Shown here piece by piece: positions 2,971 to 43,615 of a stretch of 64,000 nucleotides of DNA. The position numbers were made by a program, and so were the translations under genes. The DNA lies in NCBI GenBank assembly GCA_022703425.1, contig JAKLDQ010000003.1:1729-65728 (forward strand). The letters are read 5' to 3'. This DNA comes from Patescibacteria group bacterium (GTDB taxonomy: Bacteria > Patescibacteriota > Minisyncoccia > Minisyncoccales > Staskawiczbacteraceae). Positions within the stretch are counted from its first letter, which is position 1; each line of letters begins with the position of its first letter. Below the pieces are notes generated by a model that saw only the letters and a list, made by a program, of their open reading frames with translations, did no database searches and was not told where the DNA came from.

Positions 2971-4482
2971 ATGAATATTTGGAAAAAAGAAAAAATAAGA
3001 GTTAGGATTGCACCGTCTCCGACGGGCGCTTTACATATTGGAACTGCGCGAAGCGCGCTTTTTAATTATTTGTTTGCAAAAAAGAACAAAGGATCATTTA
3101 TCCTCAGGATTGAAGATACCGACCTTGAAAGATCGGATTTGAAATGGACACAGGATATAATCGATGGTTTAAAATGGCTGGGAATTGAATGGGATGAGGG
3201 TCCTGATATCGGCGGTGCGTTCGGCCCCTATAAACAAACTCAGCGCATTGAGTCGTATACAAAATACCTCGAAAAACTTTTGGGCGAGGACAAAGCATAT
3301 TTCTGCTTTTGCTCTTCAAAAGATCTCGAAGAAAAAAGGCAGGAACAAATGACTAGGGGAGCGGCTCCAAAATATGACGGAACATGTGCTCATCTTTCAA
3401 AAGAAACCGTCAAAAAAAATATTTCGGAAGGGAGGCCGTCTGTCATCCGGTTTAGAATGCACGAGAAGAAAATAAAATTTAAGGACCTGATAAGGGGGGA
3501 AATCGAATTCGATACCGGACTGATGGGGGATATTGTTATTGCAAAAGACACAAAAACTCCGCTGTATAATTTTGCAGTGGTTGTTGATGATTATGAGATG
3601 CAAATTTCGCATGTAATCCGAGGCGAAGACCACATTGCAAATACGCCGAAACAAATGATGCTGCAGGATGCGCTTTCGTTTAAGCCGCCGGCATATGCCC
3701 ATATTCCTTTAATCCTTGCTCCTGATCGCTCAAAGATGAGTAAAAGGTATGGGTCTGTATCAATCTCAGATTATAAAAACATGGGTTATTTGCCCGAGGC
3801 AGTTATAAATTTTATGGCATTGCTTGGCTGGAATCCGGGAACTGAAAAAGAAATCTTTTCGCTGTCACAGCTTGAAAAAGAATTTTCGCTGGACAAGGTT
3901 CAAAAAGCGGGCGCCGTTTTTAACATTCAACGGCTGGATTTTATAAACGGATACTATATCCGCGAGAAATCGGATAAAAAGGTTGCTGAGCTTTGCTTGC
4001 CGTATCTGATGTCTGCCGGATTGATTGACGGGAACCGAAAAATCAAAGGAGGAGAAGAAGTTTCGGAAAAAAAGCTTGAAAAAATAATCCAGGCATACAA
4101 GGCGCGGCTGAAAAAACTTTCTGAAATTGTTGAACTTGCAGATTTCTTTTTCAAGGAAAAGCTGGAATACAACATGAATAAGTTAAAATGGGGGACTATG
4201 GATTATGCACAGACAATTGAATCGCTAAATTATTCAGAGAAAATATTGTCTGAAATTGATAATTGGGAGCAGAAGATTTTAGAAGAGAAGTTGATGGGTG
4301 CAGCAACAAAATTCAATTTGGAAAAAGGATATCCGGAGAAGAACAGGGGATACTTGCTTTGGCCGCTGCGAGTCGCCCTTTCTGCAAAGGAAGCGTCTGC
4401 CAGTCCGTTTGAGATTGCAGATATTTTGGGAAAGGAAAAAACGTTGCAGAGAATAAACGATGCAATAGAGGCGCTCGCCTAG
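2971..4482 (+). CDS. gltX: glutamate--tRNA ligase
   Basis: RIAPSPTGALHIGTAR (HIGH) and KMSKR (KMSKS) class I motifs. Start moved to ATG 2971 (MNIWKKEKIRVRIAPSPTG); the ORF-track start 2917 overlaps murG. Confidence 0.93.
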   Translation: MNIWKKEKIRVRIAPSPTGALHIGTARSALFNYLFAKKNKGSFILRIEDTDLERSDLKWTQDIIDGLKWLGIEWDEGPDIGGAFGPYKQTQRIESYTKYLEKLLGEDKAYFCFCSSKDLEEKRQEQMTRGAAPKYDGTCAHLSKETVKKNISEGRPSVIRFRMHEKKIKFKDLIRGEIEFDTGLMGDIVIAKDTKTPLYNFAVVVDDYEMQISHVIRGEDHIANTPKQMMLQDALSFKPPAYAHIPLILAPDRSKMSKRYGSVSISDYKNMGYLPEAVINFMALLGWNPGTEKEIFSLSQLEKEFSLDKVQKAGAVFNIQRLDFINGYYIREKSDKKVAELCLPYLMSAGLIDGNRKIKGGEEVSEKKLEKIIQAYKARLKKLSEIVELADFFFKEKLEYNMNKLKWGTMDYAQTIESLNYSEKILSEIDNWEQKILEEKLMGAATKFNLEKGYPEKNRGYLLWPLRVALSAKEASASPFEIADILGKEKTLQRINDAIEALA

Positions 4483-7294: not shown

Positions 7295-7307
7295 TGTCGC
7301 ACAATAA
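7295..7307 (-). repeat. 13-mer TTATTGTGCGACA, copy 2 (reads on minus strand)
   Basis: Exact copy 38 nt after the recombinase stop, in opposite polarity to that gene. On the plus strand TTGTCG(7294)-17-TAAAAT(7317-7322) forms a promoter-like element for the LAGLIDADG gene. Confidence 0.9.
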
Positions 7308-7344
7308 GATATTTGCTAAAATAAGGTTATTAAAACAAAACAAC

Positions 7345-7833
7345 ATGGAAAAAATCAACATTGCTGCGCTTGTAAATTCTGACGGATGCTTTGATTTGCA
7401 GTTCAGAAAAGACACAAGGCATGAAAGAACCAATGCGCCGACATACTACCGCTGGAAAATACAGTTTGTTGTGACCGGGCCGAAAGAAAGCGCCAAATTA
7501 ATGCAAAAAATAAAAAACGAACTTGAGTGTGGCGAGGTTCATATTACGCGAGACCAAGCGCGATTTTCCGTCCAGAAAATTGACGACATAACGTCTGTTG
7601 TAATTCCATATTTTACAAAAAACAAGTTGGCCGACAAAAAGAGGAAGGATTTTGAGTTGTGGCAAAAAGCAGTTGAAATAATTCATAAAAATAAAGGAAA
7701 ACGCCTGTCCGGCTGGAAAAAGAACGATCTCCACTCGTTGATTGAGATCCAAAAGTCGTGCTCAAAATACAAAAATAGGCCAAGGAGCTCAAAATGGCTG
7801 GAAATGGCTCAAACGCTCGCAAAAACGGTGTAA
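7345..7833 (+). CDS. LAGLIDADG-family homing endonuclease (single-motif type), free-standing
   Basis: IAALVNSDGCF (LAGLIDADG-like motif) and VVIPYFTKNKLADKKRKDFELWQKAVEII are typical of LAGLIDADG HEGs. Start set at ATG 7345. Confidence 0.8.
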   Translation: MEKINIAALVNSDGCFDLQFRKDTRHERTNAPTYYRWKIQFVVTGPKESAKLMQKIKNELECGEVHITRDQARFSVQKIDDITSVVIPYFTKNKLADKKRKDFELWQKAVEIIHKNKGKRLSGWKKNDLHSLIEIQKSCSKYKNRPRSSKWLEMAQTLAKTV

Positions 7834-7834
7834 G

Positions 7835-7868
7835 AAAAAACGGCTCAACGAGCGTTGAGCCGTTTTTT
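7835..7868. terminator. bidirectional intrinsic terminator, AACGGCTCA hairpin family
   Basis: A6-AACGGCTCAACG ag CGTTGAGCCGTT-T6. Confidence 0.75.
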
Positions 7869-7902
7869 AGTCCCCTACTTTATACTGGATTTGTAAGAAA
7901 AT

Positions 7903-7915
7903 TGTCGCACAATAA
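7903..7915 (-). repeat. 13-mer TTATTGTGCGACA, copy 3
   Basis: Exact copy 13 nt after the stop (7929-7931) of the minus-strand DUF3298-like gene, same polarity as that gene. Confidence 0.9.
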
Positions 7916-7928
7916 AACAGAGGGCAAT

Positions 7929-8744
7929 TTAATTCAATTTTGCAGAAAGCGGTCCGGCCGGATCAATGAAGTCTTTAAATTCGGGGTAAGGAATTGTTAC
8001 CTCCTGCGGGCCGGCGGCATATGCGGCAACCTGATATTGCTGGAACAAGATAATTATACCAAAATCATTAAAGCCGACATTGGTATTATAATTATCAGAT
8101 TTTGGCTCTGTCCCCTCTTTTACCCATTCCTCATTGGTCATGGCATTATCTCCCTTTGTAATGTTTGCAATCAAATAATCGCGTGAAAAATCAGATATTT
8201 TTTTTAAATACTCAGAATCGCTTTTAAACACACTATTCCACTCAACCGGCTTGCCGGTTGAAAGATTATAATTTAAATAAACATAATTGGTAGCACCGTG
8301 CGCGCCGCCGGTGAACCTGTAATATTCCATTCTGACAGATAAAATCCGATCAATCACATTGTATGCTTCCGGCAGCGCATAAAATTCACAGGTCCAGTCG
8401 GGGGCATTATCTCCCAGTTTTGAAAAATCGCAATTTTCTCTGGCATCGTTTTTAAACGATTCTGCAACCGCGAACACCGACGATTTGATATGAGCATTTA
8501 TATCTTCCTTTGCCTGACTGTCTCTGATGCCCGAGAACACGGGATAAGTCACTTCTGTTGTATAATTGTCGGCTTTATTTACCTCTTTTTCTGTAATGTT
8601 CTCTTTCGAAATTACAATCTGGTCTATCTGCCTGCTTGCAAGACTTCCGGCTATCGATTTTATTTGGTCCAAATATTCGATTGCTAAAAAAATTCCGGCT
8701 GCAAGTATGACTAATATTAATGCAATAGTAAATATTTTTCTCAT
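7929..8744 (-). CDS. DUF3298/DUF4163-like membrane-anchored protein
   Basis: N-terminal TM helix. YRFTGGAHGATNYVYLNYNLSTGK and FQQYQVAAYAAGPQEVTIPY match my recollection of the DUF4163/DUF3298 (RsiV/PdaC-like) pair. Confidence 0.7.
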   Translation of the reverse strand: MRKIFTIALILVILAAGIFLAIEYLDQIKSIAGSLASRQIDQIVISKENITEKEVNKADNYTTEVTYPVFSGIRDSQAKEDINAHIKSSVFAVAESFKNDARENCDFSKLGDNAPDWTCEFYALPEAYNVIDRILSVRMEYYRFTGGAHGATNYVYLNYNLSTGKPVEWNSVFKSDSEYLKKISDFSRDYLIANITKGDNAMTNEEWVKEGTEPKSDNYNTNVGFNDFGIIILFQQYQVAAYAAGPQEVTIPYPEFKDFIDPAGPLSAKLN

Positions 8745-8745
8745 T

Positions 8746-9432
8746 TTATTTGCCGAATCTTCTCTGGCGGCTGTCGAATTCCGCTAGTGCGGAATCAAAA
8801 TCCTTTTCCGAAAAATCAGGCCAGTATTTGGGAGAAAAATAAAGCTCGGAATAGGCCGCCTGCCAAAGCACGAAGTTTGACATGCGCTTTTCTCCGCCTG
8901 CCCTGATTACAAAGTCCGGACTTGGAAGGCCGGCAGTAGACAGATAATTTTCGAATAATTTTTCGTCGATTTTTTCTGCAGGAATTTTTTCATCGACAAT
9001 TTTTTTGATTGCCTGCAATATGTCCCATTTTCCGCCGTAGCTTATTGCCAGGTTCAAATGGAGATTTTTATTGTTCTTTGTTGCGTCCTCAGTAATTTTG
9101 ATTGCTTCCCGCAAAGGCGCCGGAAGCCTGTCTCTTTGTCCGATAACGCGCACCCTTACGCCGTCCTTGTTGTATTTTTCAATATTGTCCCGGAGGCATT
9201 TTTCAAGAAGTTTCATTAAATAGTCAACCTCTTCTTTTGACCGATTCCAATTTTCAGTTGAAAAACCGAACGCTGTGAGTGTTTTTACGCCCCTTTCTTT
9301 GCACCATTGCGAAAAATCCAGAAGATTGTTGTATCCCTGCTTGTGGCCTTCCAGCGTATGAAGGCCTTTCTCCCTTGCCCACCTCCGGTTGCCGTCAGGA
9401 AATAATACTATGTGTTGCGGTATATGCTCCAT
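8746..9432 (-). CDS. uppS: di-trans,poly-cis-undecaprenyl-diphosphate synthase
   Basis: HIVLFPDGNRRWA, TAFGFSTENWNR and IRAGGEKRMSNFVLWQAAYSELYF are hallmark UppS motifs. Confidence 0.93.
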   Translation of the reverse strand: MEHIPQHIVLFPDGNRRWAREKGLHTLEGHKQGYNNLLDFSQWCKERGVKTLTAFGFSTENWNRSKEEVDYLMKLLEKCLRDNIEKYNKDGVRVRVIGQRDRLPAPLREAIKITEDATKNNKNLHLNLAISYGGKWDILQAIKKIVDEKIPAEKIDEKLFENYLSTAGLPSPDFVIRAGGEKRMSNFVLWQAAYSELYFSPKYWPDFSEKDFDSALAEFDSRQRRFGK

Positions 9433-12076: not shown

Positions 12077-13267
12077 CTACTTTATATTTTCCACAATTTC
12101 AAGTGCTTTAGAAAGCTGGGGATCTCTGTTCTGATTTTCATCTTCTTCGGTTATTTCAACCTTTACATCGGGGGTTAGTCCCACCTCTGAAATCGAGGCT
12201 CCTTTCGGTGTAAGCCATTTTGCGATTGTTATTTTAAGAAAAGAGCCGTCCTTCAGTTCCTGGACCTCTTGGACAGATCCCTTCCCGAAAGATTTTTCTC
12301 CAACCAGTTTTATATTTCTGTTGTCCCGCAAACAGCCCGCCAAAATTTCTGAAGCAGATGCAGATCCGCCGTTAATCAATACCACTAATGGATAATTTGC
12401 AAAAACTCCGCTTCCGCTTGTCTTGTATTCCTTTCTTTCTCCGCCTCCAAAATCCTCAATAGTGACAACTTTTCCTTTCTGTAAAAACCAGCCTGCAATC
12501 CATTGCGCCGTTTCCAGATATCCGCCCGGATTATCTCTTAAATCCAAAACAATTTTTTTTGCCGGACTTGCCAGTATTTCTTTGGCGGCATTTTGAAAAT
12601 CATTTTGAAGCGGATCATCAAATTGATAAATATGTATGTATGCAACGTTATCTTCTTTCAAGCTCCAGTCAATAGAGGGAATTTTTATTGTTCCACGGAT
12701 AATTTCGATGTCTTTGGAAGCAGAAAAACCGTCCCTGAAAATTGTCAGCGTTACGACAGTTCCCTTCTTTCCCCGTATAAGCGTGACGGCCTCTTCTGTT
12801 GTCATATCTGTTGTTTCCTTTTTGTCGATTTTTAAGATGGCATCTCCCGATTTTAACCCTGCTTTTTGCCCCGGAGTCTCAGGCAACGGCGCAATTACAG
12901 TCAGCTGTCCTTTTTTAATTCCAACTTCAACGCCAATTCCTTCAAACGAGCCGGACATATCCTGCCTGAATCTTTTTGCTTCTTCGGGGTCGAAAAATGT
13001 TGTGTAAGGATCACCGACGCTTTCGGCCATTCCTTCGATTGCGCCGTAAATAATTTTTTTAGCGCTTATCTTTGAAGGGTCGACAAAATCTTCCTGCAGC
13101 CGATTGTATGAATCCCAAAAAAGCGAAAAATCAAGCGAACCTGGCTGCGGAACATAATAATTGGAGCTTAATTTCCCAATTAAAAAACCGGCGCCAAAAA
13201 CCAATAGAACTCCGGAAATTACACCGGCAATTATAATAATTTTTTTATTTCCAAAATGAAACATCAT
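12077..13267 (-). CDS. ctpA: S41-family carboxyl-terminal processing peptidase
   Basis: N-terminal TM helix, PDZ region (GLKSGDAILKID) and S41 core (LINGGSASASEILAG, KSFGKGSVQ). ATG 13267 preferred over TTG 13285. Confidence 0.87.
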   Translation of the reverse strand: MMFHFGNKKIIIIAGVISGVLLVFGAGFLIGKLSSNYYVPQPGSLDFSLFWDSYNRLQEDFVDPSKISAKKIIYGAIEGMAESVGDPYTTFFDPEEAKRFRQDMSGSFEGIGVEVGIKKGQLTVIAPLPETPGQKAGLKSGDAILKIDKKETTDMTTEEAVTLIRGKKGTVVTLTIFRDGFSASKDIEIIRGTIKIPSIDWSLKEDNVAYIHIYQFDDPLQNDFQNAAKEILASPAKKIVLDLRDNPGGYLETAQWIAGWFLQKGKVVTIEDFGGGERKEYKTSGSGVFANYPLVVLINGGSASASEILAGCLRDNRNIKLVGEKSFGKGSVQEVQELKDGSFLKITIAKWLTPKGASISEVGLTPDVKVEITEEDENQNRDPQLSKALEIVENIK

Positions 13268-13307
13268 ATTACACAATAATACCAAAAAAAAATTTGCAAC
13301 GCAATTT

Positions 13308-13342
13308 AAAAAAAAGCGGCCCAGGGACAGAGTCTCCGGGCC
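13308..13342 (-). terminator. intrinsic terminator of candidate ncRNA B
   Basis: Minus strand reads GGCCCGG...CUGGGCC hairpin followed by GC-U8. On the plus strand the A8 run precedes the hairpin, so it is minus-specific. Confidence 0.7.
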
Positions 13343-13810
13343 TTAAAGCAGAAGAGATGTTGGAAGGCAGTCGTCACGACGGATCGGAAGTGGCTATTTT
13401 ATGCGCGTGTGTCAAAGTTCTTGCGTGGGTGTGTGTTGCTTTGCCGGTAATCGGCAGGCCAAGGGGAGGGTGGAGGTGTGTATAGGATCTCCCGCTTGGT
13501 AATTTAGTGCATAACACAGCGTCAGGCACAGCTTTGAAAACACGGACGCATATCCGTAAGGATTTGCGGGCGCCGCCAGTGGCGCCATCACAGGGGCAGG
13601 ATGAGATGTTGTGAACGTTGGGCGGCCAAAAGGGAATGCCGAGATGTCAGGCAGGCAAACTGCGGCCCGGCTAAACCTCCGCAATTTAATTGCGGAACGG
13701 GACAAATGTCCTGTGAAAACATAATCGACAGCATTAGCAATGCTGTTAAAAACAACAAACAGACGCCTATCATTGATTTCCTCCGTGTACTCTTCTGGAA
13801 GGTGCTGATT
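13310..13810 (-). ncRNA. candidate structured ncRNA B (~500 nt), class unknown
   Basis: G+C-rich with no credible ORF. Bounded by its own consensus promoter and terminator. 5' CCAGAAGAG..GGAGG pairs with 3' CCUUCC..CUCUUCUG, and there are many local GC helices. Confidence 0.45.
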
Positions 13811-13816
13811 CGATTG

Positions 13817-13845
13817 ATTGTATATTTTTTATAAAACCGTGTCAA
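13817..13845 (-). promoter_or_regulatory. sigma70-like promoter of ncRNA B (TTGACA-17-TACAAT)
   Basis: Minus strand: TTGACA 13845-13840, 17-nt spacer, TACAAT 13822-13817. Confidence 0.6.
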
Positions 13846-13873
13846 ATGGCAGCAACCCCCTTGGGGTGTGAAT

Positions 13874-13911
13874 AAAAAAAAGAGGCATATCCAACATTTG
13901 TTGGATATGCC
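13874..13911 (-). terminator. intrinsic terminator of candidate ncRNA A
   Basis: Minus strand reads GGCAUAUCCAAC-AAAU-GUUGGAUAUGCC (12-bp perfect stem) followed by UC-U8. Confidence 0.8.
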
Positions 13912-14503
13912 CTGCGCAGTGCCTGATGGTGCGTTCGGTTGCACCGGTCGGGTACAGACATCTGCGCCTGAGGCAAAACGCTGTTTGCGGATGCGATAGA
14001 AATCGCGGATGGGTGCGGCAAAGTTTTTGCGCCGGAACCCCGACGTCTCGCAAGACGCGTTTGCCTTATGGAAAACAGCTATTTTAGTTGTCGGTGCCTC
14101 TGTTTTCCTGACAGGCACCTATGTAAGGTCGCCCACTATTTATCTCCTGTGTTGGGCGTTTGGGCTTTTTCCGGTGCAGTACCCGGTCTTCGATTGTTGG
14201 GTGAACTGCGGCGGATGAAAGCCGTTCGAGGGGAACCGCCCTCGAGCAGTAATTTGTGTCATAGCGCTTTTACTGCAAATGCGCTCAAATAGTCGTCCAA
14301 TGCACACAATACTCCATTGCTAGGGCCAGGCAGTAAGGCTCGTTTGTTGCCTTTCATACCCCTGGCCGGTTTCCGCGGCCGTCGTCGGGGAGCCATTTAA
14401 TAAGCAAATCGATAGCTTTGTCTTAGCATAAGCCGTTCCTTTCTAGCCAGCTGTGTCCCATAGGTGAAGGGATTTCGCCAGCGGTAAAGTGTGCAACCTT
14501 CCT
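13876..14503 (-). ncRNA. candidate structured ncRNA A (~630 nt), class unknown
   Basis: G+C-rich and ORF-free, bounded by a consensus promoter and a strong terminator on the minus strand. Confidence 0.45.
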
Positions 14504-14510
14504 AGTATTA

Positions 14511-14539
14511 ATAATATCATATAAGCAAGGCCTTGTCAA
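14511..14539 (-). promoter_or_regulatory. sigma70-like promoter of ncRNA A (TTGACA-17-TATTAT)
   Basis: Minus strand: TTGACA 14539-14534, 17-nt spacer, TATTAT 14516-14511. Confidence 0.6.
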
Positions 14540-14589
14540 GTGGCATAAAAGCAATCAAAAACAGGGCTCTTTCGCCCCCGCTTTTTAAA

Positions 14590-14602
14590 TGTCGCACAAT
14601 AA
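14590..14602 (-). repeat. 13-mer TTATTGTGCGACA, copy 4
   Basis: Exact copy 1 nt after the stop (14604-14606) of the GT2 gene, same polarity. Confidence 0.9.
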
Positions 14603-14603
14603 A

Positions 14604-15317
14604 CTATTCTTTGTATCCGAACCTATACTTAAATATGTCAGATTTAATCGGTCCTTTTAAAATCATGTGTGCCTCGCATAAAACATATTTTGTTGCAATG
14701 TTCAGCCGGCCGTCTTTTTCAAACCTGCGCACCGAAACAAGTATCGGATACGATTCCAGAAAACCAAAGCTTCCATTTTTGCTTGCCCTGTCGGCATAAT
14801 CATGATCCTCAGCCAATTTTACTTCTTCATCAAATCCGCCGATTGATTCATGGAGTTCTTTCTTGATAAATATGCAAAATCCCGGCGCATGCGTTAAAAG
14901 TGGCTTCATTTTCTGGATATAAAAATTTGCCACCTGATGAAAAAGTTTGTCTATTGCATTTTCTGACAAAGGCACGATTGCGCATGTTGCCATGTCAAAT
15001 TTTTTTTCTCCAAATTCGGCAACGCATTTTTCTAGGAAATCGGGAGCAGGCAAAACAACGTCTGCATCCAAAAAAAGCAGTATCTCTCCCTTGGCCGCTT
15101 TTGCTCCGTTGTTTCGTGCTTTTGCGGGAAGGCCGCCCTCAACAACCTTTGCCCCGAAAGATTTTGCGATTTCGCGGGTTTTGTCTTCAGAATTATTGTC
15201 TGCGACAATTATTTCCAGATCAATGTTCTCCTGGTTTTTTATTGACTCCAAAAGATACGGCAAAAGTTTTTCCTCGTTCAGCGCGGGTATGATTACAGAA
15301 AGTTTCGGATTTTCCAT
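14604..15317 (-). CDS. family 2 glycosyltransferase
   Basis: LSVIIPALNEEK...NQ, ADNNSED, LFLDADVVL and KLAEDHD are typical GT-A/GT2 motifs. Confidence 0.85.
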   Translation of the reverse strand: MENPKLSVIIPALNEEKLLPYLLESIKNQENIDLEIIVADNNSEDKTREIAKSFGAKVVEGGLPAKARNNGAKAAKGEILLFLDADVVLPAPDFLEKCVAEFGEKKFDMATCAIVPLSENAIDKLFHQVANFYIQKMKPLLTHAPGFCIFIKKELHESIGGFDEEVKLAEDHDYADRASKNGSFGFLESYPILVSVRRFEKDGRLNIATKYVLCEAHMILKGPIKSDIFKYRFGYKE

Positions 15318-24502: not shown

Positions 24503-24823
24503 TCAGACGGTGCAAAGAGCCCCTTGGGGACTCATCATTTCGAGAAGCTGTGCTTTTAGGGCGTTAAATTCGGTAAGAAGTTTGTTGATGCGTCTTGTTT
24601 TGTCGCACTTTCTTATGTTGCGGAAATCCACTTCATCCATTTGACCCAAACACCGGATCATCTTATCAATTGCTTTTTCGGCCTCAATGCTCAGGCCGGA
24701 GCTGCTTCTTACGCGCTCAACGATAAGATATCGTGTCTGGGCGATTGCCCCCGGTTCGTCAATTGCAAAGTTTACAGCCAGCCGCTGAATGAGTTCGTCG
24801 TTAGTTCCTACTAGGATCGACAT
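24503..24823 (-). CDS. hypothetical protein
   Basis: GGAGG SD 6 nt before ATG 24823, G+C-richer than the surroundings, terminator after the stop. No family recognised. Confidence 0.45.
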   Translation of the reverse strand: MSILVGTNDELIQRLAVNFAIDEPGAIAQTRYLIVERVRSSSGLSIEAEKAIDKMIRCLGQMDEVDFRNIRKCDKTRRINKLLTEFNALKAQLLEMMSPQGALCTV

Positions 24824-25061
24824 AGCCAACCTCCTCGGCAGAAATGAATACGTCGGGCCAACCTCCGTTTGCCTCTTCCCTCATCCTTCGTATCATTTCG
24901 TCTGCGATCTCGTCGGTAAATTCCGGGAATCTTGAGTCCTTTCTGCACCTGTTAATGTTGCTGATTGCCTTTTCCATTGATTCTCTTGTATAGAAAATCT
25001 TAAAAAGACGACCTGTTTCGTGCGAAATAAAGGCGACCATGTTCACATATTCTTCTTCCAT
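24801..25061 (-). CDS. hypothetical protein
   Basis: ATG 25061 (MEEEYVNMVAF...) with AAGGA upstream. The ORF-track N-terminal extension overlaps the tRNA-like gene and is rejected. Confidence 0.4.
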   Translation of the reverse strand: MEEEYVNMVAFISHETGRLFKIFYTRESMEKAISNINRCRKDSRFPEFTDEIADEMIRRMREEANGGWPDVFISAEEVGYVDPSRN

Positions 25062-25114
25062 GATTACACCATCCTTAATTGGTGAAAAGAGCAAAAAGCC
25101 CCGATTGGGTTGAA

Positions 25115-25274
25115 TGGAGTCGGCAGGACTCGAACCTGAAACCTCTTGCTTATTTCCATCGGCCTCAGATGATTTCCCGGGAGCCCAATTCCATTGGGCA
25201 TTGCGATTACATCTGAGAAGCTGGTACAAGCCGTGGAAATTTTGCAAGCGCTCTCCCAATTGAGCTACGACCCC
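25115..25274 (-). tRNA. tRNA-Ala-like gene with a 94-nt structured segment in place of the 7-nt anticodon loop
   Basis: GGGGTCG/CGACTCC acceptor (G3:U70), D arm GCTC-AATTGGGA-GAGC, anticodon stem CTTGC/GCAAG, variable AGGTT, T arm TCAGG-TTCGAGT-CCTGC. 94 nt lie between the anticodon-stem strands and fold into nested helices. Confidence 0.6.
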
Positions 25275-43124: not shown

Positions 43125-43566
43125 TGCAATAAAAGAGCGCCGAGTCGCTCCTTTGGACGGGGGTGAAATATCCAAAGGTTTGCGAAACGGCGCATTACAC
43201 GGCTTCTTGTGCTTCTTAGTTATGGTTCAAAGCGCGAGCCAAAAGCTTGGTCTGGGCTCATACAAGAAGCCGAATATTTGATGAGGAGGGGCCTCCGGAA
43301 AGGTGGTTCCGGTGCGAACGGGTTCCCGCTCCTCATCCGAGAGCTACAGCAGCTCTCGACTTATATTATAAGCTGACGGACGTCCGAGGATCTCGGGATA
43401 ATCGGAAGAGGGCATTTCTGCATATGCAGAGGGTTCAGAGTGGAAACTCGCGGGCCCGAGAAAATTGCGAGCACTATCTAAACCTGCCATACGGCCGTAC
43501 GGCAATGCGCTAAGCAGGCGCCCTTTCTTCGGGGTCCTGCTTTCCGTCAGCTAAAAGAGCAATGTT
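43125..43566 (-). ncRNA. candidate structured ncRNA C (~440 nt), class unknown
   Basis: G+C-rich, ORF-free block between recR and a convergent gene, with a minus-strand promoter and terminator. A 9-bp helix AGCUGACGG/CCGUCAGCU closes a ~200-nt 5' domain, and an 11-bp helix CGGCUUCUUGU/ACAAGAAGCCG lies in the 3' half. Confidence 0.42.
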
Positions 43567-43572
43567 TGCTCG

Positions 43573-43601
43573 TATAATAGCATAATAAAAAACAGGCGTC
43601 A
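43573..43601 (-). promoter_or_regulatory. sigma70-like promoter of ncRNA C (TTGACG-17-TATTAT)
   Basis: Minus strand: TTGACG 43601-43596 (inside the upstream terminator loop), 17-nt spacer, TATTAT 43578-43573. Confidence 0.5.
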
Positions 43602-43615
43602 ACCCGCCTGTTTTT
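43586..43615. terminator. bidirectional intrinsic terminator
   Basis: A6-CAGGCG-TCAACC-CGCCTG-T6, overlapping the last codons of the 43599-43982 gene. Confidence 0.75.

Follow-up and report, generated by a model that had tools for sequence, protein, structure and literature searches.

Two predicted tandem transcription units with short open reading frames and structured RNA bodies upstream of ctpA in a Staskawiczbacteria-like genome

Here, we describe two back-to-back minus-strand transcription units, A and B, in a 64-kb stretch of contig JAKLDQ010000003.1 (hereafter the window) from a Staskawiczbacteria-like member of the Parcubacteria, within the Patescibacteria or candidate phyla radiation (CPR). 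We tentatively favour the reading that both are members of a lineage-specific class, found in Staskawiczbacteria-like Parcubacteria, of structured RNAs that carry a small open reading frame (ORF) and are gated by translation, and that they are not pure noncoding RNAs (ncRNAs). Their common layout consists of a strong promoter, a structured 5' leader of 30-90 nt, a Shine-Dalgarno (SD) sequence with an AUG, a short ORF whose stop lies just upstream of a 'GGCGCC/CCGGCG' hairpin region, a highly stable structure of 250-500 nt, and an intrinsic terminator. Patescibacteria genomes are about 1 Mb in size and, to our knowledge, have almost no annotated regulatory RNA; the window devotes about 1.6 kb to three strongly promoted, exceptionally structured RNAs that databases do not recognise (units A and B, and a third at 43131-43602). 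If the small-ORF and fold-back reading is true, hok-like toxin mRNA architecture and dual-function RNAs would extend to the CPR, and the units would offer testable entry points to RNA-based regulation in uncultured episymbionts.

Transcription units and folding

The minus-strand gene order is GT2 (15317-14604), a region of about 1.3 kb holding units A and B, ctpA (13285-12077), rplI and pyrG; JGI contig Ga0116241_10002059 codes for the GT2 protein. A sequence-only reading of this DNA had proposed two back-to-back minus-strand units in 13308-14539, and the promoters and terminators that it placed there are present (Table 1); for the unit A terminator its hairpin and U8 were recovered, with a stem of 13 bp here against the 12 bp claimed. 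The unit B terminator was missed by the terminator scan because its loop exceeds 8 nt, and is present in the minimum free energy (MFE) fold. Promoter-like sites scoring at least 11/12 number nine on both strands of the window, against 3.3 in shuffles, and by our Poisson estimate two such sites would fall within 1.2 kb with a chance of about 0.002. The existence of two independent minus-strand transcription units is supported. A promoter of the same type, TTGACA-N-TGCTAnnAT, drives the L27 gene (rpmA) in these genomes; the rpmA promoter TTGACAAAnnnnnnnATTTTTGCTAACAT is nearly invariant (window 9546, plus strand, with equivalent sites in most related loci) and serves as a calibration for strong promoters of the lineage.

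Composition bears out two further points of the sequence-only reading, a G+C content above that of the flanks and a G-rich plus strand: the GC fraction of 13308-14539 is 0.50-0.55 against 0.36-0.44 in the flanks (units 0.52, genome 0.41), with a skew of up to +0.30. A 176-aa 'gene' called here by JGI runs across the unit A terminator and the unit B promoter, and is for this reason considered spurious; as a lesson for annotation, gene callers put spurious ORFs of 55-176 aa over several such units.

Against dinucleotide shuffles, unit A folds with z-scores of -4.5 to -7.1 and unit B with z-scores of -3.6 to -4.0, compared with +0.5 to -2.0 for eight coding segments of the same window and -2.6 for a 23S segment. 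All ten units considered (nine with the small-ORF layout and the third window unit) fall between -3.0 and -8.0, and the thermodynamic models thus support units that are exceptionally structured and under selection for structure. As helices would lead one to expect, the plus and minus strands both fold well, and the strand was therefore taken from promoters, terminators and translation signals.

These RNAs match no family that we searched. Covariance-model scanning (cmscan) of the whole window with Rfam 15 (4227 models) at gathering score returned rRNA and tRNA only, and a scan of 13200-14650 at E<=10 gave five chance matches of 12-17 bits, none above 17.5 bits. The library holds models for RNase P, tmRNA, signal recognition particle (SRP) RNA, 6S, OLE, ROOL, GOLLD, raiA, HEARO and group I/II introns, as well as riboswitches, so that the unrecognised class announced by the sequence-only reading withstood the check that it had proposed. 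ARAGORN detected no tmRNA in the window, and tmRNA, SRP and RNase P were rejected both by eye and by Rfam/ARAGORN. Among ten ORF fragments, Pfam gave one sub-threshold match driven by a transmembrane (TM) segment (DUF5345, 17.6 bits, cut-off 27) and PADLOC none. No tandem repeats were found, and direct repeats of 12-19 nt occur at chance level only; these repeat searches of the region rule out repeat-array RNAs (CRISPR, TIGR arrays, ToxI-type type III antitoxins). An exact-pattern metagenome scan with the conserved 21-mer ACCGCNGGCGAAATCNCTTCA yielded eight matches, all chance, in contigs of 58-68% GC and none in viral contigs, and was discarded. Literature searches aimed at Patescibacteria brought up no description of such units.

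A-like units and their translation signals

Loci were fetched around ctpA homologues from species genomes and metagenome contigs; among 5.8 billion proteins, the closest relatives of CtpA reach no more than 64-70% identity and bear the label Staskawiczbacteria or Patescibacteria. Synteny is conserved downstream (ctpA-rplI-pyrG-rpmA-uppS) and variable upstream. In the interval immediately before ctpA, and on its strand, six further genomes carry a GC-rich, ORF-poor unit of 370-500 nt, most with a TTGACA promoter and a terminator, with folding z-scores of -3.0 to -7.5 and no Rfam match (the loci with related units gave tRNA only). L048 has a second unit (3724-4197) in tandem, like the window. 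Across these seven genomes (window, L002, L004, L040, L042, L048, L053) the A-like family shares a strong promoter, an SD with an AUG 43-90 nt after the predicted start, a 10-28-codon ORF with its stop near a GC box, 300-500 nt of stable GC-rich structure and a terminator, except that L004 is without an identified promoter or GC box and L042 has a weak terminator (a hairpin with a poor U-run).

Sequence similarity within the family is concentrated at the 5' end. Unit A aligns with the L002 unit (local alignment z=11.7; nhmmer E=1e-5) and marginally with that of L004 (z=3.2); nhmmer and blastn searches of both units against all fetched loci found L002 only for unit A and nothing for unit B, and a global MAFFT alignment of the A-like units was set aside as unreliable past the promoter. 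The units of L002 and L053 share with unit A both the -35 element and spacer 'TTGACAAGG...ATATG' and the promoter spacer 'TTGACAAGGnTTnnnnnATATG', and GAAAGGA is the commonest shared 7-mer (five of the six A-like units compared). Five k-mers (k=6) are common to most units against 0.4 expected in shuffles, and CCGGCG falls at nt 138-150 in three units. In the 5' domain of the A-like units RNAalifold recovered no more than one 6-bp stem; with few alignable sequences, four can form the 6-bp stem that precedes the SD, with only G-C/G-U changes and no double changes, and the inner 5' hairpin has one C-G to G-C swap between window and L002. The search for compensatory changes gave nothing usable because the retrieved strain variants are identical (L040/L041; L042/L043/L044); the second member of the 176-aa ORF cluster comes from the same contig, differing only in the translation of the start codon.

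The GC content above the genome average, the position always immediately upstream of ctpA, and the poor U-run in L042 would fit pseudogene debris, recent foreign DNA, or a long cis-acting leader or attenuator of the ctpA-rplI-pyrG operon, all of which we regard as highly improbable. Debris, which the sequence-only reading had itself named as grounds for giving up its ncRNA proposal, would be expected to resemble proteins, but tblastn with 3882 ORFs of related loci gave noise in every frame (best 24 bits). Phage and plasmid records show no similarity to the region, and seven diverged genomes have retained this GC-rich layout, which argues against recent acquisition. As for a ctpA leader, unit A is followed by another promoter (that of unit B), an opposite-strand gene lies between unit and ctpA in L002, L048 and L053, and ctpA has its own conserved TGGTATAAT-type -10. 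A leader-peptide attenuator of the ctpA operon was likewise rejected, as about 470 nt separate the unit A ORF stop from the terminator stem and the unit B promoter follows.

Other features were recorded in these intergenic spots. Directly upstream of the A-like unit of L004 is an AT-rich unit of about 180 nt (L004:360-568) with a TTGACA promoter, a long-range hairpin (GAAACGGUUCACUAAAUUGAG / CUCAGUUUAGUGAACCGUUCC) and a U-run. The opposite-strand genes between A-like unit and ctpA are a 279-aa gene in L002 and small ORFs of about 70-90 aa, without Pfam matches, at L048:4690-4945 (-) and L053:4644-4865 (-), the former hydrophobic then very basic by eye. L003:5546-5797 and L039:891-1150 carry in the same hot spot a unit of about 230 nt encoding a conserved membrane peptide of 26-35 residues, GW[LV]F..YCA..AV..FF (BLASTP E=6e-8 between the two), with its own terminator followed by a promoter and tRNA; this looks like a genuine unannotated small-protein gene. 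Three further candidates were discarded: L048:9486, at first taken as A-like, contains an ordinary ORF of about 110 codons that reads like a real protein, and L010:11769 and L053:2101 carry plausible ordinary small-protein ORFs.

The sequence-only reading had described the units as free of ORFs, and here it has to be revised. In nine units (A and B of the window and the units of the six relatives, with unit C as a control), the 10-mer of the first 130 nt most complementary to the anti-SD was chosen blind to start codons. An AUG follows within 0-8 nt of this strongest SD-like site in eight of the nine units and not in control unit C, a result whose chance we estimate at about 1e-5; in the A-like units there are 13 SD-start pairs against 4.5 +/- 1.9 in shuffles. 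The A-like ORFs are 10, 14, 12, 22, 25, 18 and 28 codons long, share no peptide sequence, and end in UGA in five of the seven units. Eight of the nine stops lie 2-15 nt upstream of a GC-rich 'CCGGCGCC/GGCGCC/CGGCCG' element, the L004 unit being without it, and a 'CCGGCGCC'-type box follows the stop in six of the seven A-like units. In four of these (L002, L040, L042 and L048 unit 2) the box starts with a UGA in frame with the AUG, at distances of 42, 66, 75 and 84 nt. The idea that UGA is read as a sense codon was rejected, as the extended frames meet further stops in L002.

Most units also have a second SD-like site with a mini-ORF, of which the core (A/G)UG CAY UGG is found in the window, L002 and L040 (UGCAYUGG; MHWP-stop in L002 and L040), the changes among the three being start-to-start, synonymous or stop-to-stop. 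In L002 and L040 the AUGGCC of the first ORF is a potential pairing partner of the conserved UGCACUGGCCGUA element, so that this element may be kept for coding or for RNA-level reasons.

Since the SD, the AUG and the relation of stop to box persist without any conservation of the peptide, we infer that in unit A translating is itself the functional event. The peptide (10 codons here, 10-28 in relatives) would then be irrelevant, and the essential step would be the loading of a ribosome and its termination at the base of the GC box, where it may open or occlude alternative helices, and so set the conformation or stability of the structured body or the accessibility of its second SD and mini-ORF.

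The main competing explanation, somewhat unlikely but credible in our judgement, is that both units are pure structured ncRNAs of a new class, in which the SD-like tract serves as a 5' stabiliser or as part of the fold and the ORFs are incidental. A 5' stabiliser of this kind, which binds 30S subunits, is the STAB-SD of Bacillus cryIIIA mRNA. Such RNAs would account for the extreme folding z-scores, for a 5' leader that is conserved when the peptides are not, for a 61-residue ORF in unit B without a homologue, and, through the pairing of UGCACUGGCCGUA in L002 and L040, for conservation at the RNA level. They do not account for an AUG, never another triplet, at canonical spacing after the strongest SD-like site in eight of nine units, for a box-starting UGA held in frame in four A-like units despite a distance range of 42-84 nt, or for TM-like ORFs that are exactly the SD-linked ones. 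On these grounds we prefer translation-gated RNAs.

Unit B and its predicted fold-back

Unit B follows the same rule of stop and box (UGA at 13590-13588, then UGGCGCCACUGGCGGCGCC), and its ORF differs from those of A-like units in being hydrophobic. The first 18-19 residues of the peptide (MIGVCLLFLTALLMLSIMF) are without charge, with a maximum 15-residue Kyte-Doolittle mean of 2.75, and among sense ORFs of at least 18 codons in the nine units a TM-like stretch was found only in the SD-linked ORFs of unit B and of L048 unit 1 (64 codons). These two units also have in common that, in their MFE folds, the SD-AUG region pairs some 40 nt short of the 3' end with a segment just before the terminator, with an ensemble pairing mass with the 3'-proximal segment of 0.61 in unit B and 0.98 in L048 unit 1. 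The pairing of the ends of unit B that the sequence-only reading had proposed appears, as 13798-13780 with 13367-13349, in both MFE and centroid structures.

Hydrophobic peptide and predicted fold-back together point to unit B as a hok-like, translationally locked mRNA. The SD would be held in the 5'-3' fold-back with the CCUUCC segment just upstream of the terminator, which would block translation of a harmful small membrane peptide until processing or refolding of the RNA, as in hok and AapA1. T1TAdb recognises type I toxin mRNAs by SD/anti-SD pairing, stem-loops at the 5' end, a terminator at the 3' end and a long-distance interaction between the two ends (PMC8594479), and the fold-back mechanism of aapA1 has been dissected (PMC6733600). 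Like hok/sok of plasmid R1 and aapA1/IsoA1 of Helicobacter pylori, unit B would be a separate mRNA a few hundred nt long, highly structured and probably stable, with a small ORF, a hydrophobic N-terminus, a predicted sequestration of the SD beside the 3' terminator, and a location in variable intergenic spots. It differs from them in a longer 3' untranslated body (about 280 nt), in an ORF that at 61 aa is at the upper size end, in a neighbour, unit A, without a hydrophobic ORF, and in that no antisense antitoxin RNA was found for it.

A further reading, which we consider improbable, makes unit B, and possibly unit A, the toxin partner in a true type I toxin-antitoxin locus whose antitoxin small RNA (sRNA) escaped recognition. 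The unit B ORF agrees with the small hydrophobic ORF of type I toxins (typically under about 60 aa), and the predicted sequestration of its SD by a 3'-proximal anti-SD, the highly structured mRNA, the strong terminator and the variable intergenic hot spot beside tRNA genes in relatives are all of the expected kind. The sole antitoxin candidate is a weak plus-strand promoter-like site at 13746-13773, which would yield an RNA antisense to the SD and 5' untranslated region (UTR); however, it scores 9/12 only and is without a terminator, and no antisense promoter was seen in the analogous unit of L048. Unit A was rejected as a trans-acting antitoxin of unit B, its complementarity being no better than shuffles in both the window and L048; its ORFs are not hydrophobic, and there is no tandem duplication. 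Neither an antisense promoter/terminator pair nor complementarity between the units was found that would complete a type I module, and literature searches aimed at the Patescibacteria turned up no described type I system in this host lineage.

Alternatively, the units could be ordinary small-protein or micropeptide mRNAs with long structured 3' UTRs, the unit B peptide being secreted or membrane-bound and perhaps related to CtpA. The same hot spot does hold genuine small-membrane-protein genes in relatives (the L003/L039 pair), two small TM ORFs are found in L053, and the SD-AUG signals are strong. The genuine genes, however, are AT-rich and short and have no GC-rich tail of 300-500 nt, the A-type peptides (10-28 residues) share no sequence, and most of each RNA is non-coding yet selected for structure, which makes this explanation quite improbable and leads us back to RNAs in which translation gates a structured body.

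Several observations weigh against such translation-gated RNAs. The energy of the SD-to-3' duplex is no better than in shuffles (z=0.1 for unit B; 11/200 for L048 unit 1), the hydrophobic peptides of unit B and L048 unit 1 show no homology, and a HMMER search of the 61-residue peptide against 1.84 billion representatives found itself and two repeat-driven matches. No antisense promoter/terminator pair was found opposite unit B. Conservation of structure, as modelled, rests on one compensatory pair (5' hairpin, window versus L002) and on thermodynamics. For most A-like units, alignment fails outside the promoter, the SD-AUG and the GC box (pairwise z<3.3), and part of the 'family' could be a convergent layout; its definition, drawn from 7-9 very divergent sequences all from around ctpA, calls for caution. 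Short motifs can also mislead, as a GC-box look-alike is found inside the ordinary ORF of about 110 codons in L048 (9570-9600). Transcription starts and translation are predicted from sequence.

Table 1. Coordinates of units A and B in the window and of A-like units in related loci
Feature	Position	Strand	Basis or remark
Unit A promoter: TTGACA, 17-nt spacer, TATTAT, TG before -10	14511..14539	-	11/12; predicted start ~14505
Unit A transcript, ~632 nt, GC 0.52	13874..14505	-	folding z, no Rfam match
Unit A 5' domain conserved with L002: ACCGCNGGCGAAAUC, small hairpin, GCUGGC/GCCAGC-type stem; ends before start codon	14430..14490	-	alignment z=11.7
Unit A Shine-Dalgarno GAAAGGAA	14436..14443	-	anti-SD duplex -10.2 kcal/mol
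Unit A leader ORF: AUG, 10 codons (MLRQSYRFAY), UAA	14397..14429	-	
Unit A GC-rich element right after stop (CCCCGACGACGGCCGCGGAAACCGGCCAGGGG); pairs locally or with 14325-14340	14359..14396	-	positional equivalent of relatives' CCGGCGCC box
Unit A second SD-like site (UGGAG) and mini-ORF GUG CAU UGG ACG ACU AUU UGA	14285..14316	-	
Unit A intrinsic terminator: 13-bp stem (13912-13883), 4-nt loop, U8	13874..13912	-	scan
Unit B promoter: TTGACA, 17-nt spacer, TACAAT	13817..13845	-	11/12; predicted start ~13812
Unit B transcript, ~505 nt, GC 0.52, C-rich (RNA-strand GC skew -0.18)	13308..13812	-	
Unit B 5' fold-back partner CCAGAAGAG..GGAGG; SD GGAGG at 13784-13780	13780..13798	-	
Unit B ORF: AUG (13773), 61 codons, UGA (13590-13588); peptide MIGVCLLFLTALLMLSIMFSQDIC..., hydrophobic N-terminus	13588..13773	-	
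Unit B hairpin GGCGCC-ACUGGC-GGCGCC, 1 nt after UGA	13569..13586	-	
Unit B hairpin, 20-nt loop exposing ACACCUCCACC, anti-SD-like	13459..13499	-	MFE, centroid, read from sequence
Unit B 3' fold-back segment CCUUCCAACAUCUCUUCUG, pairs with SD region	13349..13367	-	
Unit B intrinsic terminator: GGCCCGG(...)CUGGGCC, GC, U8	13308..13342	-	MFE fold, sequence
A-like unit	L002:4506-5037		
A-like unit	L004:569-940		
A-like unit	L040:7444-7947		
A-like unit	L042:4457-4945		
A-like unit	L048:4206-4682		
A-like unit	L053:4136-4598		

Comparison with known RNAs and neighbouring features

Dual-function RNAs include RNAIII of Staphylococcus aureus (514 nt, encoding delta-haemolysin), SR1 of Bacillus and SgrS of E. 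coli, and RNAIII binds the SDs of its targets through C-rich loops. Similarly, the units described here have their own promoter and terminator, are 200-500+ nt long, and place a small ORF 5' of a large structured domain, and unit B exposes a C-rich, anti-SD-like loop (ACACCUCCACC) as RNAIII does. They differ from RNAIII, SR1 and SgrS in their unconserved peptides, in having no sequence or Rfam relationship to them, and in the stop codon beside a GC box, which those RNAs lack.

In the leader attenuators trpL, pheL, ermCL and cat/cmlA, a short ORF is translated whose peptide sequence is largely irrelevant. The unit A ORF resembles them, its stop bordering alternative GC-rich helices and being followed downstream by a second SD, and is unlike them in the 300-500 nt between leader ORF and terminator, in having no regulated structural gene within the unit and no run of regulatory codons, and in being followed by a new promoter.

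Long GC-rich intergenic regions are a signature used to find large bacterial ncRNAs (PMC8632094). With OLE, ROOL, GOLLD, raiA and HEARO the units have in common a length of 450-630 nt, GC-richness in an AT-rich genome and a frequent location near tRNA genes; they differ from these in the absence of a covariance-model match even at E<=10, in very low conservation outside the 5' 110 nt, and in carrying a canonical SD-AUG and a short ORF. The parts of the units (small ORF, anti-SD fold-back, structured body) are known from type I toxin mRNAs and dual-function sRNAs, and the units match no curated family.

The third window unit, at 43131-43602 (-), is ORF-poor and about 440 nt long, with a TTGACG-17-TATTAT promoter (10/12), a terminator at 43154-43131 and a GC content of 0.53. 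It is the most structured of all units (folding z -7.9), the helix AGCUGACGG/CCGUCAGCU closing its first ~190 nt, and it has no SD-AUG and no Rfam match at E<=10.

A broader and rather unlikely proposal is that units A and B and 43131-43602 stand for a class of large structured RNAs (430-630 nt) through which Patescibacteria sense ribosomes and which has not been described before. Ribosomes would load on a conserved SD-AUG, translate a throw-away ORF and terminate against the GC box, and thereby switch the large RNA body, with the sequestering of SDs or 30S subunits, the control of stability, or the gating of a membrane-toxic peptide as possible outputs. If true, organisms that have very few protein regulators would possess in these RNAs a means of gauging translational capacity at the RNA level.

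Two other features of the window were noted. A free-standing LAGLIDADG endonuclease gene (~7300-9400) occupies the same spot downstream of uppS in L039, L040, L042, L045 and L048, and in most of these loci is adjoined by a XerC/D-like integrase gene; such positional stability across diverged genomes is unusual for a homing-endonuclease gene. A tRNA detected by Rfam (45 bits) at 25115-25274 (-) has an anticodon-loop region of 94 nt instead of 7, that is, an insertion or intron of about 87 nt; it was not reported by ARAGORN and overlaps a 152-aa ORF call (24801-25259).

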